Below are positions 1 through 17,500 of a DNA stretch of 64,000 bases, piece after piece. Within the stretch, counting starts at the first letter, position 1. Every line of letters begins with the position of its first letter. Under the pieces are notes generated by a model that saw only the letters and a program-made list of their open reading frames with translations, did no database searches and had not been told where the DNA came from. A program made the translations under genes and the position numbers. The stretch covers positions 5,886,675 to 5,950,674 of the forward strand of contig OZ242214.1 of assembly GCA_965206595.1 (NCBI GenBank). Reading direction: 5' to 3'. The DNA comes from Candidatus Latescibacterota bacterium. GTDB taxonomy: Bacteria > Latescibacterota > UBA2968 > UBA8231.

Positions 1-557
1 CGGACATGATCGTCTTCGGCAAGGCGGCGAGCGCCGGGTACTGCCCGTTGAGCGGGGTGATCATGCGCGGGAAGATCCGCGACAGCTTCCGCGGCAGCGG
101 CGACAGCTTCGCCCACGTCTTCACCTACGTCGACAACCCGGTCGCCATGCGCGTCGGCCTGACGGTGCAGGACATTCTGGAAGAGGAGCAGGTGATCGCC
201 AATGCCGCGGCGACCGGCGCCTACCTGCACGAGCAGGCGCGGCAGCGGCTCGAGCGCCACCCCATTGTCGGGGAAATCCGCGGCAAGGGGATGCTGCTGG
301 GGATCGAGCTGGTCAGGGACCGCGGCACCCGCGAGCCGTTCCCGGCCTCGGATGGGGTTCACAAGCGGATTGTCAGGCTGATGTTCGAGCGCGGACTGTC
401 GGCGTCCGGTACGGGTGGCGCCGCCGACTGGAAGAACGGCGACGACATGCGCTTCTACCCGCCGCTGATCACCACCCCTGCCCAGATCGACGAGGCCCTG
501 GGGATCATCGACGAGGCGCTCGGCCAGCTCGAGGGAGAGCTCGGTGTCGCAGGCTGA
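1..557 (+). CDS. Class-III (PLP-dependent) aminotransferase, C-terminal part; 5' end lies outside the window
   Basis: ORF 6..557 in frame from the window edge; C-terminal fold of omega/acetylornithine-type aminotransferases (…YVDNP…GKGLL…); no start codon upstream inside the window. Confidence 0.75.
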   Translation, partial: DMIVFGKAASAGYCPLSGVIMRGKIRDSFRGSGDSFAHVFTYVDNPVAMRVGLTVQDILEEEQVIANAAATGAYLHEQARQRLERHPIVGEIRGKGMLLGIELVRDRGTREPFPASDGVHKRIVRLMFERGLSASGTGGAADWKNGDDMRFYPPLITTPAQIDEALGIIDEALGQLEGELGVAG

Positions 558-858
558 AACCGCGGGGGCGCGGCGGCTCGGGAAGCTGCGGGAGAGCGAG
601 TACGAGGCCGGACGGTCGTACGGCGATTTCCTCGCGGAGCTGTTCGGGTATCTGGTGGTCGACCCGAAGAAGTTCCGGCGTGCCGCGAAGAAAGTGGCCC
701 CGCTGTTGACCGAGGAAGAGCTTCGCGGTCTCGTGCGGATCGGGCGCGACCTGCCGGCGACGCCGGGGGATTTCGAGGACCGCCTCGAAGAGGTATGCGC
801 CGGCAGGTCGGCCGAGGAGCGCCGCGAGCTGATGCGGTTGTGGCTCCGCTACCTGTAG
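544..858 (+). CDS. Hypothetical protein (104 aa)
   Basis: ORF with protein-like composition; overlaps the aminotransferase stop by 14 nt; no recognisable motif. Confidence 0.35.
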   Translation: MSQAETAGARRLGKLRESEYEAGRSYGDFLAELFGYLVVDPKKFRRAAKKVAPLLTEEELRGLVRIGRDLPATPGDFEDRLEEVCAGRSAEERRELMRLWLRYL

Positions 859-936
859 CAGGTTGTTCCGGTTTTTCCTGAACCGCCTGGGCCGGCTTGG
901 GGAATCGGCTGAAGGCCGGGTGCGGGGTAGGGCTTG

Positions 937-1242
937 CTATCCCGTTTCCAGATGGGGCCGCACCTCCCGATCCAGACGGTCGGACAGTTCGTCCTCTGCT
1001 ACATCGAGCTCATAGTCCATCTGAATCCCCATCCAGAACTGGGACGACATGTTGAAGTAGCGTGCCAGTCGCAGGGCGGTATCGGCAGAAATGCCTCGTT
1101 TCCCCAGGACGATCTCGTTGATTCGCCGGGGAGGCACGCCGATGGCGAGCGCCAGGCGGTTTTGGCTGAGGTTCATCGGCTTGAGGAACTCTTCCAGCAA
1201 AATTTCTCCGGGATGAACGGGAGCCAACTTCCGAGCAGGCAT
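937..1242 (-). CDS. higA: HigA antitoxin (XRE-family HTH)
   Basis: Internal Met start (MPARKLAPVHPGEILLEEFL…) gives ~102 aa; HTH_XRE motif (…QNRLALAIGVPPRRINEIVLGKRGISADTALRLARYF…); lies directly downstream of higB. Confidence 0.8.
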   Translation of the reverse strand: MPARKLAPVHPGEILLEEFLKPMNLSQNRLALAIGVPPRRINEIVLGKRGISADTALRLARYFNMSSQFWMGIQMDYELDVAEDELSDRLDREVRPHLETG

Positions 1243-1252
1243 TTCCTTCTCC

Positions 1253-1534
1253 TCAGTGGTAGTCCACGATCTCAACGTTGTAGGCATCGCCATTTCGCCA
1301 CGTGAAACAGATGCGCCACTGGTCGTTGATTCGAATACTGTACTGGCCCGCCCGATTTCCGCGCAGTTTCTCAAGGCGATTAGCTGGTGGCACGCGAAGA
1401 TCGGACAGGGTGGTTGAGCGATTGAGCATGCGAAGCTTGCGCAGGGCGGGCCGTTGAATATCTGCAGGCAGCTTTCCGGATCGGGTTCGTTGGAATATCC
1501 GTTCGGTCTCTCGATCTCTAAAGGACCGTATCAT
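1253..1534 (-). CDS. higB: HigB toxin (RelE/ParE superfamily, 'killer protein')
   Basis: 93 aa; resembles HigB (…LRVPPANRLEKLRGNRAGQYSIRINDQWRICFTW…EIVDYH); toxin upstream of antitoxin as in hig loci. Confidence 0.8.
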   Translation of the reverse strand: MIRSFRDRETERIFQRTRSGKLPADIQRPALRKLRMLNRSTTLSDLRVPPANRLEKLRGNRAGQYSIRINDQWRICFTWRNGDAYNVEIVDYH

Positions 1535-1638
1535 GTGGATAAAGTATAACTCTTAGCGTTAAACGCAAAAGGTGGTATCCTGAAAAAGCGGATTGGACTG
1601 GTGGAGGCATACGGACTTATTCGCGGAATTTCCCGCGC

Positions 1639-1666
1639 TCAGGACGTGATCAGGACGTGATCAGGA
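1639..1666. repeat. 11-bp tandem repeat (tcaggacgtga x2.5) duplicating the last codons and stop of the CoxIII-like gene
   Basis: Seen directly in sequence. Confidence 0.8.
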
Positions 1667-2189
1667 AGGTCGCGAACATCGCGACCCAGACCGCTTCGAG
1701 AAAATGCCAGTAGGCGGCGCAGCCGCGCACGCTGGGCAGGTGCTCCAGCCCGAGGCGCCCGTACGTGGCGCGCCAGGCGAGAGCGCCCAGCGGCACCAGG
1801 CCGCCGACCACGTGGGCGGCGTGGATGGCGATCAGGCAGAAGGTCACCCCCTCCATGCCGAGATGCGGAGTGCGCAGGGAGAGCTCGTGCTCGTGGAAGA
1901 GGCGCAGGATCGCGTGCGACTGCACCGCGACGAAGGCGATGCTGGCCAGGAAGGTGACCTTCACCCAGCGCCGCACCTCGTCGACAAGGCCCCGGCGCGC
2001 GTTCCAGGCCGCCCTCTCGACAGCCATTCCCGCGAGCAGCAGCAGCGCGGTCGACAGCCACATCGCCAGCGGCGGCGGCTTGCTGACCGGCGGGTACTCG
2101 GGGGGCCGCGACAGGTCGGTCAGGATGAACACCAGCAGCGAGGCGGCGAAGAAGAGGCCGAGCGATACCAGGAACAGGCGCAGCCCCAT
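1650..2189 (-). CDS. Cytochrome c oxidase subunit III-family membrane protein (short ~179 aa form)
   Basis: C-terminal …HAAHVVGG…AAYWHFLEAVWVAMF… matches the CoxIII-family signature (…AAWYWHFVD…); 5 predicted TM helices; start taken as internal Met (MGLRLFLVSL…) because the longer ORF is Pro-rich and overlaps the zeta-toxin gene. Confidence 0.55.
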   Translation of the reverse strand: MGLRLFLVSLGLFFAASLLVFILTDLSRPPEYPPVSKPPPLAMWLSTALLLLAGMAVERAAWNARRGLVDEVRRWVKVTFLASIAFVAVQSHAILRLFHEHELSLRTPHLGMEGVTFCLIAIHAAHVVGGLVPLGALAWRATYGRLGLEHLPSVRGCAAYWHFLEAVWVAMFATFLITS

Positions 2190-2406
2190 GCGCCGGAGCG
2201 AGCCGGCGTCCGGAAGGGGGGCCCTGGGCGTTCGCGGCGCGGGGTCACCGGGCAGTGGTTCGTCTTCGGGAGGTTGTTCCGGGGGAGGTGCCAAGGGGGC
2301 CTTCGCAGGTGCGGTCCGGTAGCGCCTATCCGGTATATTTAAGGAAAAACCTCGGCAGGCGGACCGGTTTTGTTGAGAACTTCTAAGGAGTTGGGGATAT
2401 GAGCCG

Positions 2407-3132
2407 ATGAACTCGGACCGGAAGATCATCATCATCGCCGGACCCAACGGCGCCGGAAAAACGACCTTCGCACGGGAGCATTTACCTCGCGAGGCCGAAT
2501 GTCCCACCTTCGTCAACGCGGATTTGATCGCAACGGGCCTGTCCCCTTTTCAGCCGGAGGTCGCCTTTTTTCGGGCCGCCCGGTTGATGTTGGAGGAAAT
2601 CGGCAACCATGTGCAGCAGCGTAGAAGTTTTGCCTTTGAAACCACCTTGTCCGGTCTTGGCTATGCCAGAATGATCCCGCGCTGGCGCGGTGACGGTTAT
2701 ACGGTGAAGCTGATATTTCTGGCGCTGGCAACGCCGGAAGAAGCGATCAAGCGGGTTGAATTGCGCGTCAGGCAAGGCGGCCACAATGTCCCGCCGGACG
2801 TCATTCGCCGGCGCTTTGCGACCGGTTTCAAGAACTTTAAGAATAGGCACCGCCATATCGTCAATTATTGGCAGTGGTTCGACAACAGTGGCCTTATTCC
2901 CACATTGATTGATAAGGGAGAAAACCCGGTGACTGAACGAACCCGAGAAGTCCCTGTCTCGCAACATGGCGACAAGGAAACGCAGGATGTCCTTAACGCG
3001 CTACATCGTGCCGCCAGACGCGCACATAGGATCGCACACCAGCACCAGACCGGGGTGGTCGTTATGCGAGATGGCAAGGTCGTTGAAATTGAGCCGGATC
3101 CCGAGATGTACTGCGAGCATCGGGAGAAATAG
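2407..3132 (+). CDS. Zeta-toxin family P-loop kinase (AAA_33/Zeta_toxin-like), 241 aa
   Basis: Walker A IIIIAGPNGAGKTTF; zeta-toxin-like core; no epsilon-like antitoxin ORF upstream; stop overlaps the GTG of the Fic fragment (TAGTG). Confidence 0.7.
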   Translation: MNSDRKIIIIAGPNGAGKTTFAREHLPREAECPTFVNADLIATGLSPFQPEVAFFRAARLMLEEIGNHVQQRRSFAFETTLSGLGYARMIPRWRGDGYTVKLIFLALATPEEAIKRVELRVRQGGHNVPPDVIRRRFATGFKNFKNRHRHIVNYWQWFDNSGLIPTLIDKGENPVTERTREVPVSQHGDKETQDVLNALHRAARRAHRIAHQHQTGVVVMRDGKVVEIEPDPEMYCEHREK

Positions 3133-3265
3133 TGCAACAGGGCGTTGAACAATTGAAATAGGCGCCTCCATACCTGTTCACCCCGGAGATACTGTCCTTG
3201 GTGGAGCGGATCGGCGAGGGAATCGGGCGGGCACTATGCTTCCGGGGTCGCGCAGGACCTGTGGA
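3132..3265 (+). pseudogene. Fic/Doc gene 5' fragment (first ~45 codons, premature stop)
   Basis: ~85% nt identity to the 5' end of the Fic gene at 4667 and to the remnant at 9236; reading frame closes after 9 codons. Confidence 0.6.
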
Positions 3266-3299
3266 CCTGCTTCTCCTTTGCCTGACGAGTGGCAAATGA

Positions 3300-4439
3300 C
3301 GATATGAACCCCCCATCCTTCTCCGACCTCCTCGCCTGTGGCCATTTCGACAAGCAGCCCTGTGAGCATTTTTCCATGGAGAACGACCTTGATGACGGGA
3401 CCTGGGCGCGGTTCAGCGGACGCGCCAAGATCCCGGAGGCGATGGATAGGGTAGAGTGGCCCTCCGAAACCTCGGCCTGATCGACGCGCAAGACCGCATG
3501 ACCCACGCCGGGGCATGGCTTGTTGCACGAGACATTCGGACGTTCACGACCAGTGCCCACGTGTCCTGTGCCCTGTTCATGGGCACCGAGAAGGTCAGGA
3601 TTCTCGACCGGCGGAACTTCCACAGCGACATCCCGGCGATGATTGACGAGGTAGTGGCCTGGATTCTCACCAAAATCAATGTCGAATTCATCATCAGGCA
3701 CGTGAGGCGGGAGGAACGGCCGGAATTGCCCGAAGAAGCCCTTCGGGAAGCGGTGGTGAATGCCGTTGCACACCGCGACTACCGCTCGACCGCAAACGTC
3801 CGGATTTACGTCTTCAAGGATCGGATCGAAATCGTCAGTCCAGGCGGGTTGCCCGAAGGGATGGGGGAAGCGGATCTGGGCACCAAGAGCGTCCCCCGCA
3901 ATCCGCTGCTGTTCGGCATGTTGTACCGAATGGATGTGGTGGAGCAGATCGGTTCCGGCATTCGGCGCATTCGGGAGCAATGTCGAGAGCACGGGGTGGC
4001 GGAGCCGGTGATCGAGGTGTCCGAGCACTGGGTTACCACAACCTTCAGGCGCCCGGTCGCAGACGTCGGGAGCAAGTCGGGGGCAAGTGGGGACCAGGTC
4101 GACAACGCCATATCTGACAATACGTTACAATATTCGGGGAACCCTCCCGGGGATTCGACCTTACAAGTGGAGGACCAGATCGGAACCAAGCAAGCACTAA
4201 GTAGGCACCAAGTTGGAATTCTCCGTAACTCCTTGAACGAGCAGGCAATTACGGAGTTGATGGTACTGGCGGGGAAAAAAGATCGCACCAAGTTCAGGAA
4301 CCAAGTGCTCAGGCCCCTGCTGGAGGAGGGGTTGCTGGAGATGACCGTCCCCGACAAGCCCCGAAGCAGCAAGCAGAAGTACCGGGTGACGGCACGGGGC
4401 AGGGACCTGTTGGCGGAGTTGGACAGAAAGCCGGATTGA
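3300..4439 (+). pseudogene. 5'-truncated and frameshifted copy of the AlbA_2/HATPase_c_4 (RecG-C-terminal-like) gene
   Basis: ORFs 3289..3480 and 3456..4439 together align to residues ~115-488 of the full copy at 5565..7031 (…VNAVAHRDYRSTANV…VEQIGSGIRRIREQC…); N-terminal AlbA_2 domain absent; C-terminal wHTH tail differs and is AT-richer. Confidence 0.6.
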
Positions 4440-4489
4440 CCCATTCCTGCACGGTGCCGGCGAAGAGGATCAGGATGAAGTTCCAGGAG

Positions 4490-4667
4490 CTGGGGCTATG
4501 AGGCGATGCACCCGGACCGGAATACCATCACCATCGCCGGACGACCTTTGCATGGGAGCATTACCCCGCGGAGCCGAATGTCACACTTGGTTGTGGTTAT
4601 GGAAAAAGGCAAGGTCGTAGAAATCGAGCCGGATCCCGAGATGTACGGCGAGCATCCGGAGAAATAG
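4490..4667 (+). pseudogene. Remnant of a zeta-toxin gene (P-loop deleted, large internal deletion)
   Basis: Homologous to the 5' end (incl. upstream 'ggggatatgag…') and last ~80 nt of the gene at 2407..3132; 20-nt P-loop-coding deletion and ~0.5-kb internal deletion. Confidence 0.6.
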
Positions 4668-5442
4668 TGCAACAGGTTGCAGCACAATTGAACGAGGCGC
4701 CCCCATACCGGATCACCCCCGAGATCCTGTCCCTGGTGGAGCGGATCGGCGAGGGCATCGGGTGGGCGGAGGCTTCCGGCGTCGCGCAGGATCTGCGGCT
4801 GCGGCGTATCAACCGCATCCGCACGATACAGGGATCGCTGGCGATCGAGGGGAACACCCTGACCGAGGGACAGATATCAACGCTGCTGGATGGCAAACCG
4901 GTTGCCGGACCCCTGCGGGAAATCCGGGAAGCTCGCAACGCCATCAAGGCGTGCGACGTGTACGAGGCGTGGGATCCGGCAAACGAGGCCGACCTCCTTG
5001 AGGCGCACCGCATCCTGATGGCCGGCCTGCTGGACAGGCCGGGGAGTTACCGCCGCGGCGGGGTTATGGTCGGAGGACCTGGAGGGGTCCATCACGTCGG
5101 CCCGCCGCCGGCGCGGGTGCCGGAGCAGATGGGGAGGCTGCTGGAGTGGGTGGGAAGTGCCGGAGAGCATCCGCTGATTTCCAGTTCGGTCTTTCTCATT
5201 ACGAGTTCGAGTTCATCCATCCCTTCGAGGACGGCAACGGCCGCATGGGTCGGCTATGGCAGACGCTGATCCTGACGCGCTGGCGGGACCTGTTCGCTCA
5301 TCTTCCGGTGGAGAGCCTCGTTCACGCCCGTCAGAGCGCTTACTATGCCGCCATCCGCGAGAGCTCGGCCGCGGGGGAGAGCACGCCCTTCATCGTATTC
5401 ATGCTGGAAATCATCCGGCTTGCCGTTACGGAGCAGACCTGA
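4667..5442 (+). pseudogene. Fic/Doc family protein (AMPylator-type), interrupted by a frameshift near 5200
   Basis: ORF 4667..5269 (frame 2) continues as ORF 5146..5442 (frame 1), which holds the Fic motif HPFEDGNGRMGR; frameshift in a T/C-rich stretch. Confidence 0.7.
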
Positions 5443-5469
5443 GCGGGGATGTGAACTTTGCCGGGAGCT

Positions 5470-5555
5470 CTGCTGGAGATTACCGTCCCGGACAGCAGCT
5501 GAAGTACCGAGTGACGGCAAGAGACAGGGACCTGTTGGCGGCGTTGGACAGATGA
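5470..5555 (+). pseudogene. 3'-terminal remnant of an AlbA_2/HATPase_c_4 gene
   Basis: …QQLKYRVTARDRDLLAALDR* matches the C-terminus of the copy at 3300..4439 (…KQKYRVTARGRDLLAELDRKPD). Confidence 0.5.
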
Positions 5556-5564
5556 GTACCCGTT

Positions 5565-7031
5565 ATGAATGAAACCCTCCTCAGCCTGATCACCCTCGGC
5601 GAAGGCTTCACAACGGAGTTCAAGCGCTCTTTCCCCTCCGACCTGGGCACCGAAATCTGCGCCTTCGCGAATTCCACGGGCGGCGTAATTCTGCTCGGCG
5701 TGACGAACGAAGGGGAGACCGTAGGCATTGGGAACCACAACAAGCTGAAATCGCAGGTCCAGTCTACCGCGCGTTCGGCGGAGCCACCGATTGCGGTCGA
5801 AGTGGAATCCGCCGGCGACGTGCTCTGCGTGACCGTGCCCGAACAGCACGGGAAGCCCTATTCCTTCGGCGGAAGGTTCTACATCCGCGAAGGGGCCAAT
5901 TCTCAGCAGATGTCCCGCGACGAAATCCGGGAGTTCTTCTACAAGGAAGGACTCATTCGCTTCGACGAGACGCCTTGCCAGCGCTTCGATCTCCAACGCG
6001 ATCTGACGCCGGAAGCGTGGTCTCGATTCGCCGGGCGGGCTCGAATTCCTGACGGCATGGAGCCGCTGACGGCGCTGGAAAACCTGCATCTTGTCGTTGA
6101 TGGAAAGATGACCCACGCCGGAGCGTGGCTGCTGGCGGACGATATCACCCGGTACAGCTTGCAGGCAGGGGTGACCTGCGCCCTGCTGCGGGGGGTGACC
6201 AAGACGCACATTCTCGATCTCAAGAACTTCACCGGCGATCTCTACTCGATCTACGAGGATTGTGTGGCCTACGCACAGGCCAAACTGAACACGGCGCTGA
6301 TGCCGCACGTTCGCGGCAGGGATGAGCGTCTGGAGCTGCCCGAGGACGCGATTCGCGAAGTATTGGTGAACGCCATCGCGCACCGGGACTATCGATCTAC
6401 CGCCAACGTGCAGATGTACGTGTTCCACGACCGGTTGGAAATCGTGACGCCGGGCGGGTTGCCCGCAGGAATGCGCGAAGAGGATCTGGGCGTCAAGAGC
6501 GTGCCGCGGAACCGGTTGCTGTTCGGGATGTTTCACCGCATGGGGATGGTGGAGCAGATCGGCAGCGGAATCAGGCGCATTCGACAGGAGTGCCGCGACT
6601 ACGGGGTGGCGGAACCGGTGATCGAGGTATCCGAGCACTGGGTGACCATGACCTTTCAAAGGCCGTCCGCACAAATCGGTGAGCAAGTCACGGCGCATGT
6701 CAGGGACCGAGTCCATGCAGGGCCAGAGTCAGGGCCAGAGTCAGGGCCAGAGTCAGGGCCAGAGTCAGGGCCAGAGTCAGGGCCAGAGTCAGGGCCAGAG
6801 TCACTGGAACTGCGCGTCCTGGCGCTGCTGATCGAAGAACCTCTTTCGAGATCCGCCATAGCTGATGGTTTGGGACACCAATCCGTGTCGGCCGGCCTCA
6901 ACAGAGTGATCCGCAACCTGGTGCGTGACAGGCGTATTGCGTACACGGTCCCGGACAAGCCGGGCAGCAGGCTTCAGAAGTACCGGATTACGCCAGCCGG
7001 GAGATCGGCGCTCGAAGAGCCAGCCAAGTGA
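5565..7031 (+). CDS. AlbA_2 (divergent AAA-4) + HATPase_c_4 + C-terminal wHTH protein (RecG C-terminal-like / Schlafen-like putative DNA-binding ATPase), 488 aa
   Basis: N-terminal …TEFKRSF…GGVILLGV… (AlbA_2-like); central …VNAIAHRDYRSTANVQMYVF…MVEQIGSGIRRIRQEC… (HATPase_c_4-like); stops 22 nt before hsdM. Confidence 0.7.
   Translation: MNETLLSLITLGEGFTTEFKRSFPSDLGTEICAFANSTGGVILLGVTNEGETVGIGNHNKLKSQVQSTARSAEPPIAVEVESAGDVLCVTVPEQHGKPYSFGGRFYIREGANSQQMSRDEIREFFYKEGLIRFDETPCQRFDLQRDLTPEAWSRFAGRARIPDGMEPLTALENLHLVVDGKMTHAGAWLLADDITRYSLQAGVTCALLRGVTKTHILDLKNFTGDLYSIYEDCVAYAQAKLNTALMPHVRGRDERLELPEDAIREVLVNAIAHRDYRSTANVQMYVFHDRLEIVTPGGLPAGMREEDLGVKSVPRNRLLFGMFHRMGMVEQIGSGIRRIRQECRDYGVAEPVIEVSEHWVTMTFQRPSAQIGEQVTAHVRDRVHAGPESGPESGPESGPESGPESGPESGPESLELRVLALLIEEPLSRSAIADGLGHQSVSAGLNRVIRNLVRDRRIAYTVPDKPGSRLQKYRITPAGRSALEEPAK
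6721..6804 (+). repeat. In-frame 12-bp tandem repeat (ggccagagtcag x7) encoding (GPES)7
   Basis: Seen directly; perfect copies, last unit ends in c; lies in the linker before the C-terminal wHTH of the 5565..7031 protein. Confidence 0.95.
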
Positions 7032-7053
7032 GCCTCTCCCCCTGACAACACTC

Positions 7054-9169
7054 ATGTCCCAACTCGAACATATCGACGCCATCGAGAAGCGCCTCTGGGA
7101 AGCGGCGGACACGCTGCGGGCAAACTCCCCATACGCCAGCAACGAGTACTTCCTGCCGGTCATGGGCCTGGTGTTTCTGCGCCACGCCTACAGCCGCTAC
7201 CTGGCGGTCAAGGACAAAGTCGAAGCCAGCCTGCCGACCCGGGGCGGCAGGAAACGGGCGCCGACCAAGGAGGACTATTCCCGGCAGAGCGCCATCTTCC
7301 TGCGCCCCGAGGCCCAATTCGACAATCTGGTTGGCCTGCCGGACGGAGAGGACCGCGCCAAGGCCGTCATCGCGGCGATGGACTCCATCGAGGAGGATTA
7401 CCACAGCCTGCGCGGCGCCCTTCCCAAGGCCGAGTACCAGGAGCTGGACAACGACGTGCTCGGCCAGCTCCTGCGCACGCTCAACCCCGACCAGCTGAAG
7501 CAGGTCTCGGGCGACGTTTTCGGACGCATCTACGAGTATTTCCTGACCAAGTTTGCGGATTTGAAAGCCCACGACGACGGCGAGTTCTTCACCCCCGTGT
7601 CGCTGGTCTCGCTGATCGCTCATGTGCTCGACCCCGACCGCGGCACCGTGCTCGACCCGGCCTGCGGTTCCGGCGGCATGTTCGTGCAGAGCGCCCGCAC
7701 CGTGGAGGAGCACGGCAGCAGCCCTGCCGAGCGGCTTACCTTCCGCGGCCTGGAGAAGAACGCCACCACCATCCGCATCGCCCGGATGAACCTCGCCGTC
7801 CACGGCCTCGAGGGGGACATCCGGCAGGCGATCACCTACTACGAGGATCCGCATCAAATGGTGGGAAAGGCCGACTACGTGATGGCCAATCCTCCCTTCA
7901 ACGTCGACGAGATCGACGCCGACAAGGTGGAGACCGACCCGCGCCTGCCGTTCGGCCTGCCGGGAGTCAACAAGAAGGAGAAGGTCTCGAACGGCAACTA
8001 CGTCTGGATCAGCTACTTCTACAGCTACCTGAACGAGAAGGGGCGGGCCGGCTTCGTCATGTCGTCGCAGGCATCCAGCGCCGGCGGGACCGAGGCGCAG
8101 GTGCGGCGGAAGCTGATCGAGTCCGGCGACGTCGACGTGATGATCGCGGTGCGCTCCAACTTCTTCTACACCCGCACCGTGCCCTGCGAGTTGTGGTTCC
8201 TCAACCGCAACAAGCCCGGGGAGTTTCGCGACAAGGTGCTGATGATCGACGCCCGCGATGTCTATCGAAAGGTCACCCGCAAGATCTACGACTTCAGCCC
8301 CGAGCAGGAGCAGAACCTGCTGGCCATCGTCTGGCTCTACCGGGGCGAAACGGAGCGCTATCTCGATCTCGTCTCCCAGTACCTGTGGGACGTTGCCGAG
8401 AATGGAAGGGCCTGTTACGAAGGGATGAGCGTAAACGGCAGGACCTGCCGGCCGCTGCCGGAGTTCATGGAAGCCGTCGCCGCGCTCCGGGAGGACCTGT
8501 CCCCGTTCCTGAAGACCCGGCCGAGGATCGGCCCGCACGCCGAAATCTTCGCCGAGCTGGCGAAGGAGCAGAAGCAGTTCGGAGGCATCCTCAGGAGGTT
8601 CCAGGCTCGGGCCGCCAAGGCGCAGGAACAGTGGGAGCGGGCTCCCGGCACCAGCGCCGGATTGAACAAGCTGGTGGAGCGGTTCGCACCGGCTGGCTGA
8701 GAGCAGCCGCGACCTCGCCGGGCAGTCCGACCAGCTCTACAAGCTCGCCAACCGCCTGATCGAGACCTGCGAGCAGGAGGAGGACGCGAAGGCGAGCGAC
8801 GCCTGGAACGGCCGCGGTATTACCCGGGCCAGGAAAGCGGTCGACGATGCCCGCCGGCAGGCCATCGAGCAGCTCGAACAGGTGCACTACTTCCACCGGC
8901 AGGCGCGCTGGCTCACGGAGCGCTTCCCCGAGGGAGAGTTGCGCGACGTGGAAGGGCTGGTCAAGCTGGTGGACCGCGCCGAGATCGAGGCCAACGACTG
9001 GAGCCTGACTCCGGGCCGCTACGTCGGCGTCGCCCCCGAGGAGGAGGAGGAAGGGTTCGACTTCAAGGAAGCACTTCGAGAGATCCACCTTGAGCTGGAG
9101 GACCTCAACGCCGAGGCAGTGGTGCTGGCGGAGAAGATCAGAAAGAACTTCGAGGAGCTGGGGGTATGA
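7054..9169 (+). pseudogene. hsdM: Type I restriction-modification N6-adenine methyltransferase HsdM, interrupted by a 4-bp tandem duplication (GGCT)2 at 8691-8698
   Basis: MSQLEHIDAIEKRLWEAADTLR… N-terminus and NPPF motif (VMANPPFN); frame 1 stops at 8700; C-terminal ~168 codons (…DWSLTPGRYVGV…) continue open in the +1 frame from 8666 to 9169; deleting one GGCT unit restores one 704-aa ORF. Confidence 0.8.
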
Positions 9170-9235
9170 AGAAGCGAACCAATCTGCGGCCGGGGGGTTT
9201 CGGCGCGGCACACTGGCACTGCCGCCATAAGAAAC

Positions 9236-9492
9236 AGGCTGTTGCACAATTGAACGAGGCACCCCAATACCGGATCACCCCCCAGATACGGTCCCTGGTG
9301 GATCGGATCGGGGAGGGCATAGGGCGGGGCGAAGGCTTCCGGCGTTGCGCAGGACCTGCGGGTTCGGTGTATCAACCGCCCACCAGAGCGCGAACTCTTC
9401 CGCCGACCGGGAGAGCTCGGCGGAAGAGTTCGGCCTTTATCGTATTCATGCTGGAGATCAACCCGTTTGCGGTGCCGGGGGATCAGACATGA
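9236..9492 (+). pseudogene. Fic/Doc gene remnant (5' ~50 codons joined to 3' ~20 codons, internal deletion)
   Basis: ORF 9166..9492: …QAVAQLNEAPQYRITPQIRSLVDRIGEGIG… plus …FIVFMLEI… match the N- and C-termini of the Fic gene at 4667..5442. Confidence 0.6.
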
Positions 9493-9628
9493 GGGACAGC
9501 TACTGCGGGGACTTTCTCACCATCTGTCGAAACGACCTTGGAAAGAGCGCATTTACAGTTGATGGATGTGTGCGAGGGGTCATATTGATGACCGTACGCA
9601 TCCTATGGGGTCCAACGGAGTTTGATCG

Positions 9629-10774
9629 ATGAAATGGACACCTCGAACTCTTGATGAACTTGGCTACGTTAGCCGGGGCAGGTCTCGGCACAGGCCAAGG
9701 GATGCCGCCCACCTTTACGGCGGCCCTTACCCTTTCATCCAGACAGGGGATATAAAACACGCAAGTCTCTATGTAAATAGTTACTCGCAGACCTACACGG
9801 AGGCCGGACTTGCCCAGAGTCGTCTCTGGAAAGCGGGAACACTATGCATAACGATTGCCGCAAATATTGCGGACACGGCGATTCTCGCCATTGATGCCTG
9901 CTTTCCAGACAGCGTTATCGGCTTCATCCCCGACAATGAGAAAGCCGATGCCCGTTTTCTCAAATACCTGTTTGATGCGACGATTCAGAAACGAATCAAG
10001 CAGTTCACTCAAGGCGCCACGCAGGACAACCTTAGCCAAACCAAGCTCCTGTCACTCCAATTCCCCATTCCAGACGTGGCGGAACAACTCCGTATTGCCG
10101 ACCTCCTGTCAGCCTACGACGACTTGATGGAGAAGAACCGGCGCCGGATTCAGTTGCTGGAGCACGCTGCGCGACTGCTCTACAAGGAGTGGTTTGTCCA
10201 TCTTCGCTTCCCTGGAAATGAGAACGTCAAGATCAAGGACGGTGTGCCGGAGGGATGGGAGAGGAAGACGTTGGGCGATTTAGTAGAGGTGACAAAGGGA
10301 AGGAACATTACCAAAAATTCAGCTAAGGATGGCTCTGTGCCCGTTGTTGCTGGGGGCTTATCTCCAGCCTATTATCACGATACGGCCAATGCGGTTGGAC
10401 CAGCCATCACTATTAGTGCATCTGGAGCCAACGCCGGATACGTGAACCTCTACTACGAGGACATTTGGGCATCTGACTGCTCTTATATCAGTACTACATC
10501 AACGGATCGTCTGTATTACCTTTACTTACTCCTCAAGTCGAAACAGAGGGAGATCTTGGGATTCCAGAAGGGCGCAGCACAGCCTCACGTTTACCCAAAG
10601 GACTTGAAAAGGTTGCCGTTGTTGGCTCCAAAGAATATCGTCGTGAATATGTTTGAAGAATCAGTAGTGGCAGACAATTTTCATCAAAAGGTCTTGGTCG
10701 AACAAAACAAACTACTGGTGCAAGCCCGAGACCTGCTTCTGCCGCGTTTGATGAGTAGAAAGGTGGCGGTATGA
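9629..10774 (+). CDS. hsdS: Type I R-M specificity subunit HsdS (two target-recognition domains)
   Basis: 381 aa; conserved central and C-terminal HsdS helices (…LAEQLRIADLLSAYDDLMEKNRRRIQLLE…, …LVEQNKLLVQARDLLLPRLMS…); GC drops to ~50%. Confidence 0.85.
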   Translation: MKWTPRTLDELGYVSRGRSRHRPRDAAHLYGGPYPFIQTGDIKHASLYVNSYSQTYTEAGLAQSRLWKAGTLCITIAANIADTAILAIDACFPDSVIGFIPDNEKADARFLKYLFDATIQKRIKQFTQGATQDNLSQTKLLSLQFPIPDVAEQLRIADLLSAYDDLMEKNRRRIQLLEHAARLLYKEWFVHLRFPGNENVKIKDGVPEGWERKTLGDLVEVTKGRNITKNSAKDGSVPVVAGGLSPAYYHDTANAVGPAITISASGANAGYVNLYYEDIWASDCSYISTTSTDRLYYLYLLLKSKQREILGFQKGAAQPHVYPKDLKRLPLLAPKNIVVNMFEESVVADNFHQKVLVEQNKLLVQARDLLLPRLMSRKVAV

Positions 10775-11544
10775 GCGTATCCTACCCAACCAAACTTCGC
10801 CTAGCTTATCGAAGCGGGGACAGATGCGCCCTTCCCGGTTGTGGGCAGCAATTATCGCCAACGGGCGAAGGCGGCATTCCTAGCAATGTGGGAGAGTACG
10901 CACATATCGCCGGAGAACATAGCGGTAGAGTACGGGGCCATCGGTCCGCTCGCTACGATCCAAATATGACTGAAGAGGAGAGGAACGGCTACCACAACCT
11001 GATTTATTTATGTGCGAACTGCCACAGAAGAATAGACGCTATTCCACAGGGAGAACCAGACTATCCTGTGGAACGTCTCCAGGAGATCAAAGCCGAGCAT
11101 GAGCTAAGGGTTAGCGAGGCAATGGCTGAGGCATTCGCAGATGTCGGCTTCCCTGAACTAGAAGAAGCCACTCTATGGATCATGCAACTTATTCCTCAAC
11201 AACCGGATAGTGACTTCACGGTAATTGCACCCGAAGACAAACTAAAGAAGAACGAATTAGGAAACGCCTCTCGAAATATCATCACAATGGGCCTCAGTGT
11301 TTCGCGGGAGGTTCGAGCATTTATTGAAAATACAGCACAGGAAGATCATAATTTTCCAGAACGTCTGAAGTCAGGATTTCTTGAGGAGTACTACCGACTG
11401 AAGAAAGAGGGGCATTCAGGGGATGATCTTTTCGACTTGATGTGTCGATTTGCACAAAGAGGCTTCACAGAGGAAACAAAGAGGTCTGCTGGGAAGGCAG
11501 TGATGATTTACCTATTTGAGACTTGTGAGGTGTTTGAGAAATGA
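10771..11544 (+). CDS. HNH-nuclease effector protein (N-terminal HNH, C-terminal alpha-helical domain), 257 aa
   Basis: HNH motif C-x2-C … H … N … C-x2-CH (…CALPGCGQ…EYAHIAGEH…NLIYLCANCHRRID…); start overlaps the hsdS stop (ATGA); AT-rich. Confidence 0.7.
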   Translation: MSVSYPTKLRLAYRSGDRCALPGCGQQLSPTGEGGIPSNVGEYAHIAGEHSGRVRGHRSARYDPNMTEEERNGYHNLIYLCANCHRRIDAIPQGEPDYPVERLQEIKAEHELRVSEAMAEAFADVGFPELEEATLWIMQLIPQQPDSDFTVIAPEDKLKKNELGNASRNIITMGLSVSREVRAFIENTAQEDHNFPERLKSGFLEEYYRLKKEGHSGDDLFDLMCRFAQRGFTEETKRSAGKAVMIYLFETCEVFEK

Positions 11545-11768
11545 TTCTTCCGTCGAAGCACATTTCCCAAGACCAATCACTGATCGGCGTCGGTGCTATT
11601 CTACTAAAGAAGATTGGTAGGCCCCAGACCGTAACCAGCCTTTGGGAGACCGTCCGCGAGGAAGATGCGATAGGTACGTTTGAACGGTTTGTACTAGCGC
11701 TTGACATGCTTCACATCGCCGGAGCTGTAGCCTTGGAAAATGGCCTGATCGTAAAGGTGAAAAAATGA
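11541..11768 (+). CDS. Small helical protein (75 aa), candidate 'middle component'
   Basis: ATGA overlaps with both neighbours; no recognisable motif. Confidence 0.5.
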   Translation: MILPSKHISQDQSLIGVGAILLKKIGRPQTVTSLWETVREEDAIGTFERFVLALDMLHIAGAVALENGLIVKVKK

Positions 11769-13525
11769 TCCATAGTATTACCGCTAACCACTCCTCATTC
11801 AATCCCGTCGAATTCACGTCGGGCTTGAACGTGATCTTAGCAGATCGCACTGAAACTTCGACACAAAAAGACACACGAAATGGTCTTGGTAAGTCTACAC
11901 TAATTGAAATTATCCACTTCTGCCTAGGCTCCAACGTTCAAAAAGGTCAAGGGCTTTCAATAGAGCCACTACGGGATTGGGAGTTCACCTTGGAGATTAC
12001 ACTCGCGGGTAACCGTGTGAAAGTAACTCGCGCCGTTGCTAGATCTAATATTTTTGTCATAGATGGCACGACGACTGGTTGGATTGATCAACCTGATTGT
12101 GAGGATATGTTTGGAAAGAAACCAATCAGATTAAAATTGGATCAATGGAGGGCACTCTTGGGGAGGGCACTATTTGGGTTATCGCCATCTGACGAACCCC
12201 ATAGTTACACGCCGTCTTTTCGGAGTCTGCTTTCTTATTTTATAAGATTGGGGAATGACGCTTATGATGATCCCTTCCGAAATACGCGACAGCAGCAACC
12301 GTGGAACGTTCAGCTCCATGTCGGATTTCTTCTTGGCTTGAACTGGGAGAACGCGGCGAGATGGCAGGAGCTTAAGGACCAGGAGAAAGGCGTGAAGGCA
12401 TTTAGTCAAGCAATCAAGTCTGGTGTCACGGAATATGCACGGGGTTCGGTTGGCGAATTGGAGGCTGAGCGTGTTCAGTTGGAAAGTCAATTAGAGCAGG
12501 AGTCCCATGCACTACAAAATTTCAAGGTTCACCCTCAATATGAGTCTATTCAGCAAGAAGCGGACCGGGCCACAGCGATCATTCACAACTTAACTAATGA
12601 TAACGTCGTTGGTCGCAGACGATTGGCACGCTATAGGGAATCTGTTGCAGCGGAAAAGCCCCCATCGGATACCGCAATCGATGAACTGTATAAGGAGGCA
12701 GGCGTTGTTTTTTTTGAAGCGACTCGTCGCACTCTAACGGAAGCGAAGGAATTTCATTCTAAGATCGTGGAGAACAGGCGAGCTTTCCTTGAGATGGAAA
12801 TCGTACGCTTGGAACGACAAATTGAGAATAGAAACAATGACATCAGAAAATGGACCGACACCAGGGCTACTTCGCTGGAAATCCTAAGAACACATGGTGC
12901 TCTACAAGAGCTGACCAAGCTACAAGAGCGCCATGCAGGTACGCGAGAAAGACTGGAAAGTACACGTACGCGAATTTCAGAAATTAGGAATTTGACGGCG
13001 CAGAAGCGTAAGGTTCTAGTTGAGAAGACCGAACTAGCTCAGATTACCGAGCGGGATCACGAGCAACGCCGAGACGTTTGGAACACTCCAGTACGTTTCT
13101 TCAACGACAATTCTCAAGCTTTATACCAAACACCTGGACACTTGGTGATTGACATCGGTAGAGCCGGTTTCAAATACGATGTCGAGATAAACAGGAGCGG
13201 CAGTGAAGGCGTCAATAAGATGAAAATATTTTGCTTCGATTTGATGCTCGTGCAGCTCACGCCGATACGGAACAATCCAATTGATTTTCTGATTCATGAC
13301 AGTGGTCTTTACGATGGCGTTGACTCTAGGCAGCGGGCCCTTGCGCTTGAGCGCGCATGTGAAGTGTCCGAGGCAACCGATACACAATATATTTGCACAC
13401 TTAATTCTGATATGGTTCCGCGAGATGACTTCAGTCCCGGATTTTACTTCGATAAATATGTCAGACTGACGCTTACTGACAAGAATCCCTCCGGCAGTCT
13501 TCTTGGCTTTCAGTTCGAGATGTAA
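11765..13525 (+). CDS. ABC/SMC-like ATPase with a central coiled coil (586 aa)
   Basis: N-terminal Walker A NGLGKSTLIEII; ~200-aa coiled-coil insert; C-terminal signature-like SGSEG, Walker B IDFLIHDSG and D-loop LYDGVD, as in Rad50/SMC/ABC-3C-type ATPases. Confidence 0.75.
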   Translation: MIHSITANHSSFNPVEFTSGLNVILADRTETSTQKDTRNGLGKSTLIEIIHFCLGSNVQKGQGLSIEPLRDWEFTLEITLAGNRVKVTRAVARSNIFVIDGTTTGWIDQPDCEDMFGKKPIRLKLDQWRALLGRALFGLSPSDEPHSYTPSFRSLLSYFIRLGNDAYDDPFRNTRQQQPWNVQLHVGFLLGLNWENAARWQELKDQEKGVKAFSQAIKSGVTEYARGSVGELEAERVQLESQLEQESHALQNFKVHPQYESIQQEADRATAIIHNLTNDNVVGRRRLARYRESVAAEKPPSDTAIDELYKEAGVVFFEATRRTLTEAKEFHSKIVENRRAFLEMEIVRLERQIENRNNDIRKWTDTRATSLEILRTHGALQELTKLQERHAGTRERLESTRTRISEIRNLTAQKRKVLVEKTELAQITERDHEQRRDVWNTPVRFFNDNSQALYQTPGHLVIDIGRAGFKYDVEINRSGSEGVNKMKIFCFDLMLVQLTPIRNNPIDFLIHDSGLYDGVDSRQRALALERACEVSEATDTQYICTLNSDMVPRDDFSPGFYFDKYVRLTLTDKNPSGSLLGFQFEM

Positions 13526-13665
13526 AGTGAAGGGTAGATTTACAGTCTCTGGTCTCATAGACGCAATGGTCAATGGAAAGGGTATCTCCAGATTGACCTT
13601 TTCCCATCTGAAGATCAGGAGGCCAGGGTCAACCTTGATGAAATGAGAAAACAAGGAGGTGACCC

Positions 13666-14562
13666 GTGAACATACGCGAGTACCACCAACTCCAGGCGGA
13701 ACGGACCACCCTGGATGATTTGCTCGAGCGGCTACCCCCGGAAAATGTGATCGAACGAACCGGTCTGGAATTCCGGAAGAAGGAGGTGGATGAAGCACTC
13801 GCTTCGCGTCCGGAGCCCTCCAGAAACCCCACCCGGGTGTGTCTGACCTTTCGCGGAAAACCCATCGCAGGATCCCATGGGATTTTCGCGGATTTCGGGG
13901 CGGAGGCCGTTCAGGCATTTACGAATATGGTTGCCACCATGGGCGCCAGCCAACATGCACCGCTCGGGTCGCGTGGTGCGATACCCAACCGTGAGGAGTA
14001 CCGCCTGCTGATTACCGGCACGGCATCAGGATCGTTCGGTTTCGAGCTGGAAGAGGCCAGGTATGACCTCTTTCCCGAATCTTCTCCGGTCGAGTCCGCA
14101 ATTGTCCAAACAATGACAATTCTTGAGGCTACGGTTGGAGCAGACGAAGTATTGGCGAATGCCGTTTCCGAAGCCGACCCGCGAGCGCTTGAGGCGCTGC
14201 GTGGGTTCTTGGAAACGATGGCGGATCAAGACGCGGTGTGCACGGTTGAATTCAACGACGATGTTTTCCGGTTTGTGGACGTTGGCCAGGTCCGACGAAG
14301 CGAAAGCCGCCTGAGTCCGGAGAACATTCATGAAGAAGTGCGGGAAATCACAGGGCGCATTATTGGGGTATTGCCCTTCCGTCGTACGTTCGAATTTCTG
14401 GAAGATGAAACAGGAGAATTGATCTCGGGCCGGATCGATCGCGCTATCGAAGATGCTGCGGAAATTGATCAGTTTCTCAACAGATCCTTGAAGATCCGCG
14501 TGGATTCCAAACAGGTAGGAACAGCAAGGCCTCGTTACGTCCTTTTGGAATACGACATATAA
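13666..14562 (+). CDS. Hypothetical acidic protein (298 aa), no recognisable domain
   Basis: GTG start 8 nt after AGGAGG; lies between the ATPase gene and hsdR; intermediate GC (~57%). Confidence 0.55.
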   Translation: MNIREYHQLQAERTTLDDLLERLPPENVIERTGLEFRKKEVDEALASRPEPSRNPTRVCLTFRGKPIAGSHGIFADFGAEAVQAFTNMVATMGASQHAPLGSRGAIPNREEYRLLITGTASGSFGFELEEARYDLFPESSPVESAIVQTMTILEATVGADEVLANAVSEADPRALEALRGFLETMADQDAVCTVEFNDDVFRFVDVGQVRRSESRLSPENIHEEVREITGRIIGVLPFRRTFEFLEDETGELISGRIDRAIEDAAEIDQFLNRSLKIRVDSKQVGTARPRYVLLEYDI

Positions 14563-14598
14563 CGGCATTTGATCCTTGGATCCCCCAAGCATAGGGCT

Positions 14599-17500
14599 AT
14601 GACCCCGACTCCCTATACCGAGGACAGCCTCGTCCAGCAGACCACCGCCAACTACCTGGAGCAACGCCTGGGCTGGGAGTCAATCTACGCCTACAACCAC
14701 GAGGACTCCGGTCCCGGCAGCCTGCTCGGCCGCGCCTCCGGCCGCGAGGTAGTGCTGGAGCGGACGCTTCGCGCGAACCTCGCGGAGCTGAATCCGGGCC
14801 TGCCCGCATCCGCATACGACGACGCGGTGCGGCAGATCACCGCTGTCTCCGCCTCCCAGACCCTCGTCGCCGCCAACCGTGAGAAGTACAAGCTGGTACG
14901 GGACGGCCTGCAGGTGGTCTTCACCAACGACCGGGGCAAGCGGAAGACACGCCTCCTGCGGCTGTTCGACTTCGCCGAGCCGGCCAACAATCATTTCCTG
15001 TGCGTGCGCGAGCTGTGGGTGCAGGGGGATCTCTACCGCCGCCGCGCCGACATCGTCGGCTTCGTCAACGGCCTGCCGTTGCTGTTCATCGAGTGCAAGA
15101 ACATCCACCGCGACCTCAAGGCCGCCTTCGAGGGGAACTACTCCGACTACCGCGACACCATTCCCCACCTCTTCCACCACAACGCAGTGGTGATGTTCGC
15201 CAACGGCGAGAAGGCGAACATCGGCTCCATCACCAGCCGCTGGGAACACTTCTACGAGTGGAAGCGCCTGGCCGAGGAGGAGCCGGGTGTGGTCGACATG
15301 GAGACGCTGCTCAAGGGGGTCTGCGACAAGCGCAACTTCATGGACTTGGTGGAGAACTTCATCCTCTTCGACGATTCGACGGGAGAGACGCGGAAGATTC
15401 TGGCCCGCAACCACCAGTTCCTCGGCGTGAACCGGGCCGTCGAGGCGGTGCGCGACCGCGAGAAGCGGCAGGGCCGGCTCGGCGTCTTCTGGCATACCCA
15501 GGGAGCGGGCAAGAGCTACTCGATGGTGATGTTCACCCGCAAGGTTCATCGCAAGCTGGGGGGCAACTTCACCTTCCTGGTGCTGACCGACCGGGACGAT
15601 CTCGACCGCCAGATCTACAAGACCTTCGCCGGCTGCGGCGTGGTGGATCACGATCGCGACCCCTGCCGGGCCGCGGACGGAAAGCACCTCGGCCGGTTGA
15701 TGGCCGAGCACAAGTCCCACGTCTTCTCGCTGATCCAGAAGTTCAACCTGGACCCGGGCGCCGGCTACACGATGCGCGGGGACATCATAGTCATCAGCGA
15801 CGAGGCGCACCGCACCCAGTACGGCACCCTGGCGCTCAACATGCGCAACGCCCTGCCAAACGCCGGCTACATCGGCTTTACGGGCACGCCGCTGTTCACC
15901 GAAGATGAGATCACCCGTCGCGTCTTCGGCGAGTACGTCTCGACCTACGACTTCCAGCGCGCGGTGGAGGACGAGGCCACGGTGCCGCTCTACTACGACG
16001 CCCGCGGCGACAAGCTGGGCGTTGCCATCGGCGACCTGAACGAGCGCATCGCCGACAAGCTGGATGAGTTCGACATCGAGGACGTCGACGTGGAGCAGCG
16101 CCTGGAGCAAGACCTGAAGCGGGACTATCACGTCGTCACCGCGGGCAGGCGTCTCGACCAGGTAGCGCGGGACTTCGTGCAGCACTATTCCGCGGCCTGG
16201 GAGACCGGAAAGGCGATCCTGGTCTGTATCGACAAGATCACCTGCGTGCGCATGCATGGGCTGATCGAGCGCTATTGGAACGAGCGCATCGAGGAACTGG
16301 AGGAGGAGAAGAAGTGGACTGACGACGAGCAGGAGGAGATTTATCTCCAGCGGCAGATCGAGTGGACGCGGGAGACCCGCATGGCCGTGGTGGTGAGCGA
16401 GGATCAGGGGGAGGTGGCGAAGTTCCGCAAGTGGGAGCTGGACATCACCCCGCACCGGAAGCTCATCAAGAATGGTATGGAACTGCCCGAGTCGATGCGC
16501 CGCAAGCCGCAGTTCCGCCGCAAGCAGCGGATGGCGGTCGACGAAGCCTTCAAGGCGGAGGAGCATCCGTTTCGCATCGCCATCGTTTGCGCCATGTGGC
16601 TGACCGGTTTCGACGTGCCGAGCCTTTCCACGCTCTACCTCGACAAACCGCTCAAAGCCCACACCCTTATGCAGGCCATCGCCCGCGCAAACCGGGTCAA
16701 CGAGGGCAAGAACAACGGCCTGATCGTCGACTACTGCGGCATCCTCAGGCACCTGCGCAAGGCCCTGGCGACCTTTGCCGGTACCGCCGACGGAGGAGGA
16801 GGTGGTGGCGGTCCCGGTCAAGAGATTGATCCTGTGCAACCGGGAAAGGAGCTGCTCGCTGGCCTCGCCGAAGCGATTGCCATGGTGCGCGCTTTCCTCG
16901 AAGAACGCCGTGCGCCGCTCGACGATGTCATCCATAAGACCGGCTTCGAGCGCAACGCCGCCATCGTGGCCTGCAAGGAAGCGGCCAACGAGAACGACGA
17001 GACCCGCAAGCGCTTCGAAGTGATCTGCCGCGAGGTTTTCAGGAAGTTCAAGGCCTGCATCAACCTGCGGGGCGTCAACGCCTACCGGGGGGATCGCGCC
17101 GCCATCGACGCCGTCTACCGGAGCCTCCAGCAGGACCGCGAGCAGGCCGACATCACCGACATCATCCGCGCCCTGCACGGAGTGGTGGACGAGGCCATCG
17201 ACCTGCGGCAGGAACGCACTAGGGATAGTCATCGGGATCCGTTGGACATCAGCCGGATCGACTTCGACCGGCTCAAGCGGGAGTTCGAGGGCAGCCCCGC
17301 CAAGCGGACGACAGTGCAGTCCCTCAAGGAGGCAGTGGAGGAGAGGCTCCGGCGCCTTTTGGCCCGCAACCCGCTACGGACCGACTTCCAAAGACATTTC
17401 GAGGAGATAGTCAGAGAGTACAACCGGGAGAAGGAGCGGGTGACCATCGAGCATACCTTCGAGGCATTGCTCAACCTCGTGAAGGAGCTGGATGAGGAGG

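Follow-up and report, generated by a model that had tools for sequence, protein, structure and literature searches.

In the present study, we analyzed a 64,000-nt stretch of DNA from Candidatus Latescibacterota bacterium (contig OZ242214.1, positions 5,886,675-5,950,674; hereafter the window, whose positions are used as coordinates below), in which a hypervariable defence island lies at about 2348-17836, between a cox3-like gene on the left and msrA on the right, both of which are conserved chromosomal genes. The core of the island is a Type I restriction-modification operon (hsdM-hsdS-hsdR) with accessory genes embedded between hsdM and hsdS or hsdR, namely a zeta-like kinase with a small partner open reading frame (ORF), a SoFic-type Fic AMPylase, a protein with AlbA_2, HATPase_c_4 and winged helix-turn-helix (wHTH) domains (hereafter AlbA2), and an ABC-three-component (ABC-3C) system. 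The island is probably a hotspot similar to the immigration control region (ICR) of enterobacteria, in which hsdM-linked accessory modules have been stacked, eroded, converted and replaced in blocks. We observed directly that the modules are eroding, that one tract has been converted and that the hsdS-proximal block is replaced between strains.

Between 2376 and 9493, three units in the same orientation follow one another, built on the order hsdM 3' end, zeta, partner ORF, Fic and AlbA2, and differing in their state of decay (Table 1). Each unit is headed by a relic of the hsdM 3' end or, in unit 3, by the true end of hsdM, and the two upstream units have no hsdM bodies. A previous reading made from the letters of the window without database searches (the sequence-only reading) had described zeta-Fic-AlbA2 cassettes in this region, and Pfam and tblastn confirmed each of its gene calls; it had missed the hsdM-end relics heading the units, as well as the splitting of hsdM by a +1 frameshift. 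Self-BLASTN of positions 1-14000 also bore out the internal repeats, with E values down to 2e-75, and a separate repeat search gave the same families. However, the copies are between 72 and 87% identical, not uniformly about 85% as had been stated.

In unit 1, the kinase (about 174 aa) is joined to the normally separate partner ORF of about 65 aa by one extra G at 2928/2929, CCCGGTGA. In L003-L011 (at about 10001-10720 of those loci), L048 and L061 (labels of the form L0xx, L001-L012, L048 and L057-L062, denote comparison loci or assemblies), the kinase has GENP as its last residues, and its end overlaps the start of the partner ORF (GTGA); L001, L002 and L057 share the fused form with the window. 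The kinase that had been called intact is thus an open ORF, but one produced by a 1-nt frameshift fusion. As had been read, only about the first 45 codons of Fic remain in this unit (a 44-codon stub) and AlbA2 copy 1 is frameshifted, by AG inserted at 3453-3454. However, the latter gene is not truncated at the 5' end: its ATG at 3304 and 11 codons are kept, and the AlbA_2 domain is deleted internally, with the junction at about 3337-3342. The AG insertion is also found in L001 and is missing from L057, in which the ORF has 377 aa.

Unit 2 agrees with the sequence-only reading in its gutted zeta relic with the P-loop deleted, in its Fic gene with the HPFEDGNGR motif and one frameshift, and in the intact 488-aa AlbA2 gene, which ends 22 nt before the hsdM ATG at 7054. 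The stop codon of the zeta relic overlaps the GTG of Fic (ATAGTG); its sequence is identical in L058 and L059, and the same relic is present in L002. Compared with the orthologue in L048 (intact, 257 aa, 94% identical, PADLOC SoFic 1.6e-40), Fic copy 2 has exactly one frameshift, and the same frameshifted 200-aa ORF is found in L057, L058 and L059. The Fic relic with 5' and 3' parts between hsdM and hsdS was likewise as described, and a 63-nt spacer separates it from the end of hsdM. No copy of Fic is therefore intact: one is a stub with an in-frame TAG, one has the +TC frameshift and one is an internally deleted relic. With hsdM carrying a +1 frameshift and the zeta ORF being a fusion, the proposal that one working copy of each gene type is left does not hold; in the flagged region, the kinase-partner fusion and the 488-aa AlbA2 gene are the only open frames remaining.

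The extra G at 8691 ends the hsdM ORF at 8700, and the last 157 codons or so lie in another frame. The HsdM_N and N6_Mtase domains are present, but Pfam placed positions 2-271 of the N6_Mtase profile in the ORF 6925-8700 and positions 275-310 in the ORF 8882-9169, and HsdM is thus not one open frame. The frame is open in L057, where a protein of 704 aa is called, and in L002 at the position of the additional G. An exact-sequence look-up returned no record for the truncated 548-aa HsdM or for the 488-aa AlbA2; the hsdM frameshift is thus without confirmation from a second assembly. As hsdM is apparently inactivated, the Type I restriction system itself is probably dead in this genome. HsdS retains both target-recognition domains, and the nuclease, superfamily 2 motor and C-terminal domains of HsdR are all present.

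The aminotransferase-cox3 flank is common to the window and four other Latescibacterota genomes (L002, L057, L061 and L048), and the msrA side is shared with L048. Which copies are intact and which have decayed differs among these five genomes, and alignment to relatives yielded a different arrangement in each and not one identical layout. In L048, flank homology with the window ends at 2347 and returns at 17837; the site is nearly empty and lacks restriction genes, and all that it holds is a zeta gene truncated at the 5' end, the partner as an ORF of its own and an intact Fic of 257 aa. In L002 (about 95% identical), AlbA2 copy 1 is intact, the Fic copy 1 stub is missing, Fic copy 2 has two other frameshifts, Fic copy 3 is missing and the hsdS allele is different. 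In this genome, the closest relative at the species level, an ISKra4-family transposase gene (16933-18378 of L002, minus strand) is inserted in the last 30 or so codons of hsdM, which is an independent disabling of the gene that is frameshifted in the window. In L057, hsdM is open, Fic copy 3 is full-length with multiple frameshifts and its motif mutated to HAFEDGNGR, and hsdS (11373-12243 of L057) has lost its first target-recognition domain and no longer has its start in frame. The S gene is thereby reduced to half its size, but S subunits of half size sometimes function, and this one may do so. L061 and L062 have an unfused zeta of 174 aa and an intact AlbA2 copy 1 of 499 aa, and both Fic copy 2 and the body of the 488-type AlbA2 gene are deleted. 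At least four of the genomes (the window, L002, L057 and L048) thus have a damaged restriction system or none; this count leaves out L061, whose hsdM calls are fragments at a coverage of 4-5x.

Homology with the window ends at about 9150 in L057, at 9199 in L002 and at 9160 in L061, that is, at or just past the end of hsdM. Beyond this point, strains that are about 99.5% identical carry Fic copy 3 sequences that are about 85% identical and different hsdS alleles. Furthermore, copy 2 of Fic in L002 contains a tract of about 140 nt that matches the copy 1 stub of the window. Over a 210-nt segment, the L002 copy is 93% identical to copy 1 of the window, compared with 85% between copies 1 and 2 of the window, and from this pattern of identity the tract is assigned to gene conversion. 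Relics are not confined to these genomes. AlbA2 stubs are present in other Latescibacterota Type I operons (L005, L007, L009 and L011), and alignment by eye indicated a possible Fic start stub of about 14-30 nt in L004; turnover of the zeta, Fic and AlbA2 genes is general in the clade.

We propose that three generations of an hsdM-proximal accessory module would have piled up by recombination between hsdM-linked modules, either through local duplication or through incoming divergent alleles. All three units are being eroded by internal deletions, small frameshifts and one nonsense mutation, and the copies are patched now and then by gene conversion from one another. The hsdS-proximal block has been replaced, with breakpoints at or just past the hsdM 3' end. 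The accessory genes may once have been transcribed together with the restriction system and have served as modules of toxicity or abortive infection.

In the ICR (hotspot 36), conserved anchor genes enclose a defence island whose hsd genes vary in the manner of cassettes (PMC12707154). The present island resembles it in its conserved flanks, its highly variable defence content, the replacement of Type I systems as blocks, the near-empty site in a relative (L048) and the interspersed toxin-antitoxin genes. Conserved anchors, variable defence content and a near-empty site, which together characterize an ICR-like hotspot, were all found when the five same-flank genomes were compared. However, the present island belongs to a different phylum and is anchored by the cox3-like gene and msrA, its accessory genes lie inside the hsdM-hsdS-hsdR operon, and earlier modules were left as a stack of relics 5' of hsdM instead of being cleanly replaced.

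Table 1. Features of the defence island and pairs of repeats found by self-BLASTN (window positions)
Feature	Position	Strand	Remarks
hsdM 3'-end relic 1	2376-2402	+	Reads ..ENF(K)ELGI, stop; matches 4485-4501 and true hsdM end 9143-9169; adjoins cox3-side flank ending near 2347
Zeta-like P-loop kinase fused to partner ORF, 241 aa	2407-3132	+	Pfam Zeta_toxin 3.8e-10, AAA_33
Fic copy 1, 44-codon 5' stub	3132-3264	+	In-frame TAG at 3159-3161; 80-85% identical to other two Fic 5' ends; same sequence in L001
AlbA2 copy 1 pseudogene	3304-4439	+	Remaining ORF 3456-4439, HATPase_c_4 and Fic-like_C tail
hsdM 3'-end relic 2	4453-4501	+	Last 16 codons, VPAKRIRMKFQELGL, stop; 84% identical to 9121-9169; starts 13 nt past stop of AlbA2 copy 1
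Zeta copy 2 relic	4506-4667	+	Begins with codon 1, lacks 20 nt at the P-loop and runs to about codon 33, then continues as last 26 codons of partner ORF
Fic copy 2, full length for 257-aa short form	4667-5442	+	SoFic-like; +TC frameshift at 5194-5195
AlbA2 3'-end relic, copy-1 type, about 85 nt	5471-5555	+	Ends ..KYRVTARDRDLLAALDR, stop; 5471-5552 78% identical to 4333-4427
Intact AlbA_2, HATPase_c_4 and wHTH gene, 488 aa	5565-7031	+	Pfam; start 12 nt past AlbA2 tail relic
hsdM, 704 codons if repaired	7054-9169	+	Pfam N6_Mtase divided between two ORFs
Fic copy 3 relic	9233-9493	+	5' 147 nt and 3' 117 nt, middle deleted (self-BLASTN, tblastn); full-length, multiply frameshifted version at same place in L057
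hsdS, open	9629-10774	+	Two target-recognition domains; Pfam Methylase_S, two stretches; alleles differ in L002, L057 and L061
ABC-3C system	10771-13525	+	HNH+CTD10 effector, MC6, DUF2326 ATPase; PADLOC PDC-M68A/B 4e-85 and 7e-215
hsdR, open	14569-17853	+	1094 codons from first possible start; HSDR_N, SWI2_SNF2, ResIII, T1R_D3-like, T1RH-like_C; right-hand end of island
Repeat pair	3054-3264 and 4589-4798		84.8%, E 7e-63
Repeat pair	4671-4816 and 9233-9379		87%, E 2e-45
Repeat pair	3136-3264 and 9233-9361		80%
Repeat pair	3698-4078 and 6305-6689		76%, E 2e-75
Repeat pair	2386-2507 and 4485-4586		72%
Repeat pair	4333-4427 and 5471-5552		78%
Repeat pair	5325-5443 and 9377-9493		75%
Repeat pair	4453-4501 and 9121-9169		84%

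Several points weigh against the reading of the island as an ICR-like hotspot with stacked modules. The G at 8691 is found in the window assembly alone, the frame is open in L057 at about 99.5% identity, and the insertion could be a single-base assembly error. Natural fusions of kinase and partner are common in other phyla, for example in several Dehalococcoidia; thus, the partner tail is a domain in its own right, and the kinase may still work in its fused form. The functions given for the accessory genes are putative and come from family membership alone. As for the origin of the copies, the zeta-3'/partner segments of copy 1 and of copy-2 type are nearest neighbours at 85%, only slightly closer than other genomes at 82-83%. 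The best database match of Fic copy 3 in blastx is the Fic copy 2 type, which fits local duplication, and copy 1 and the 488-aa AlbA2 are clearly of different lineages. Neither this blastx result nor neighbour-joining analysis of the zeta-3'/partner segment separated local duplication from acquisition, and the units may have originated either by ancient local duplication or by serial acquisition.

The sequence-only reading had pointed to repeated duplication and deletional recombination at one hotspot, with one working copy of each gene type left. As a model, this would be local tandem duplication alone, with triplication of an hsdM-zeta-Fic-AlbA2 unit followed by divergence and by complementary decay to one working copy of each gene. 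The like gene order and orientation of all units, and the neighbour relationships of the zeta/partner segments and of Fic copy 3 given above, are in favor of this explanation. However, no working Fic is left, and hsdM is frameshifted. Moreover, the copies differ from one another by 13-28% of nucleotides, compared with 0.5-10% between strains, and noncoding relics are unlikely to last so long. The two AlbA2 genes are only 49% identical at the amino acid level, and copy 1 has relatives with 87% nucleotide identity in other genomes; furthermore, comparison of strains that are about 99.5% identical showed directly that divergent alleles take one another's place at the hsdM end. Purely local duplication is thus unlikely. 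From that proposal, the single hotspot stands, with nested independent deletions, the conversion tract and the breakpoints at the hsdM end, whereas repeated duplication was not demonstrated.

It is highly improbable that the relics are a reservoir of silent cassettes for programmed variation by gene conversion, like pilS/pilE or the hsdS shufflons. In favor of such a reservoir is the conversion tract in L002. However, the relics contain frameshifts, a nonsense codon and large deletions, the copies that would be expressed are broken too, and relatives merely lose pieces. No tRNA gene was found in 1-25000, no inverted repeats were found in 1-14000 by the repeat search, and Pfam-type profile scans gave no recombinase match among the island ORFs scanned; nothing thus suggests programmed switching. 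Phase variation by a shufflon-like mechanism also found no support, as the frameshift sites are not repeat tracts and the sole tandem repeat is an in-frame (GPES)n.

Assembly error, whether by chimera formation, by the collapse of a repeat or by indel noise in long reads, is scarcely credible as a source of false pseudogenes, since the layout and most lesions recur in four independent assemblies from other samples, with the hsdM +G alone excepted. L001 corresponds to 2303-3682 of the window and shares its TAG, AG insertion and internal deletion; L058 corresponds to 3664-5643 (99.95%, no gaps) and L059, a SPAdes-style contig, to 3826-5546 (100%), both spanning the junction of units 1 and 2 and carrying the TC insertion; and L057 corresponds to position 1 to about 9150 at about 99.5%. 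In addition, most frameshifts are 2-nt insertions outside homopolymers, and the flanking housekeeping genes are nearly free of frame-breaking indels relative to relatives. What speaks for such an artefact is that the related metagenome-assembled genomes are long-read assemblies, some with 4-14x coverage, that the hsdM +G has no confirmation, and that a lone T at 2384 in the first hsdM relic is found in neither L001 nor L057; this T is either a private mutation of a noncoding relic or a single-base assembly error.

The 488-aa AlbA2 has SLFN_AlbA_2 (4e-18), HATPase_c_4 (5e-22) and Fic-like_C (5e-5, under the curated cut-off) in one open frame. The sequence-only reading had regarded the wHTH tails of the two AlbA2 genes as unrelated, as if swapped. 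On the contrary, the tails are homologous (36% identity over 67 aa, BLASTP E 3e-10), both match PF21247, and the architecture of copy 1 is conserved in other genomes. Intact copy-1 orthologues have 492 aa in L002 and 499 aa in L061, and copy-1-type genes have nearer relatives in other genomes (about 87% at the nucleotide and 74-75% at the amino acid level) than the neighbouring 488-aa gene. The linker of the latter contains a perfect 12-nt repeat of 7.2 units at 6718-6803, detected by Tandem Repeats Finder, which encodes (GPES)n. L002 has 4 units where the window has 7, and L057 is 36 nt (three units) shorter; thus, this is an in-frame length polymorphism between strains. The relic at 5471-5552 was also considered as the lost C-terminal domain of Fic itself and was rejected, because it follows the tail of AlbA2 copy 1 and not the tails of long Fic proteins.

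Fic copy 2 (Pfam Fic) and its orthologue in L048 resemble SoFic in the PADLOC profile match, obtained with the L048 protein, and both have an inhibitory motif of the SxxxEG type (SLAIEGN) and the HPFxxGNGR active site (HPFEDGNGR). However, all three copies in the window are broken, and the 257-aa form ends before the C-terminal wHTH (PF21247, Fic-like_C) that relatives of about 330 aa carry; its SoFic match stops at profile position 267 of 361, and it does not match PF21247. Deletion of the C-terminal wHTH domain abolished the toxicity of E. coli Sofic (PMC12249575), and thus, by analogy, even an intact short form may be attenuated. Close homologues of Fic stand alone or lie among toxin-antitoxin genes. 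Since this is so, and since no kinase homologue was found directly beside Type I genes outside Latescibacterota, an obligate three-gene system of zeta, Fic and AlbA2 was rejected.

The kinase resembles zeta and PezT, the toxins of the epsilon-zeta and PezAT systems. It matches Zeta_toxin (PF06414) with 40 bits against a cut-off of 22.3, over profile positions 79-172 of 199, and has the Walker A motif GPNGAGKT at residues 12-19. Because a sequence search of the PDB gave matches to the P-loop only, we used a fold search with a predicted structure (AlphaFold, predicted local distance difference test score 88), in which PezT and zeta were the top folds (E 4e-7, TM score 0.5); polynucleotide kinase and PFK-2 kinase domains scored nearly as high. 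Zeta toxins are further characterized by toxicity and by phosphorylation of UDP-GlcNAc (or NAD), and in this respect the kinase is a putative member of the family. In contrast to zeta and PezT, which have about 250-290 aa, the kinase has about 174 aa, its identity to them is 11-18% at a TM score of about 0.5, and it has a downstream partner, sometimes fused, instead of an upstream antitoxin: no epsilon or PezA gene was found upstream of the kinase, where hsdM or an hsdM relic lies. The partner has the motif ALxRAAxRAHxIAxxTGTxVVVxxDGKVVEIxPDPEMY, gave no match in Pfam, NCBIfam or PADLOC, and is modeled by AlphaFold with high confidence as a long helix and a beta-hairpin.

The kinase and partner genes lie directly 3' of hsdM in L007, L010 and L011, and about 1.1 kb downstream in L009. 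Outside Latescibacterota, we found no kinase homologue directly beside Type I genes; the only Type I signals were weak hsdM-like matches about 5 kb away at three loci and an hsdS-like fragment in L012. PrrC of EcoprrI, an accessory toxin encoded within a Type I locus, acts as a guard of the restriction enzyme (PMC12707154). The present kinase and Fic are similar in that a Type I operon encloses their genes, in which stop codons overlap start codons. However, they have no sequence or fold relation to PrrC, their homologues also occur without restriction genes, and any interaction with the restriction complex or activation by anti-restriction proteins would be hypothetical. It is a long shot that the translationally coupled kinase and partner, located just 3' of hsdM in several of the approximately 10 sampled Latescibacterota Type I operons, form an uncharacterised toxin-antitoxin or abortive-infection module linked to restriction. 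By guardian logic of this kind, it would be set off once the restriction complex is put out of action, with the partner as a new kind of kinase inhibitor. A search of the literature on zeta or Fic inside hsd operons, and on HATPase_c_4, found nothing specific.

Downstream of hsdS, the ABC-3C block (PADLOC candidate PDC-M68), which was not among the findings of the sequence-only reading at 2407-9492, is complete and has the HNH+CTD10 effector, MC6 middle component and DUF2326 ABC ATPase in the expected order. It is embedded between hsdS and hsdR, and its GC content (0.46-0.52) is below that of its surroundings (0.60-0.68), which suggests a recent horizontal arrival; the same block is present in L060. 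A 298-aa ORF just 5' of hsdR (13666-14562), for which Pfam, NCBIfam and PADLOC gave no match, is kept at the same place in L060. On the other side of the island, a HigB/HigA-like toxin-antitoxin pair lies at 937-1534, between the aminotransferase and the cox3-like gene. In L002, window 1279-1649 is missing and nothing but the antitoxin part remains, L048 is without the pair, and none was called in L061; the pair is a second small indel-variable module next to the island.

Our results describe a well-documented and ordinary case of defence-island reshuffling, which reveals no new mechanism. They also provide a warning for annotation, as the genes called 'zeta toxin', 'Fic' and 'hsdM' here are mostly pseudogenes. 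Only the module of kinase and partner, located between hsdM and hsdS, merits further study. Among the genomes compared, the restriction system has been disabled by various means, namely by frameshift, by insertion of an insertion sequence, by truncation of hsdS and by loss of the whole locus, and the island offers a base-by-base view of how a defence island is eroded and rebuilt in an uncultured phylum.

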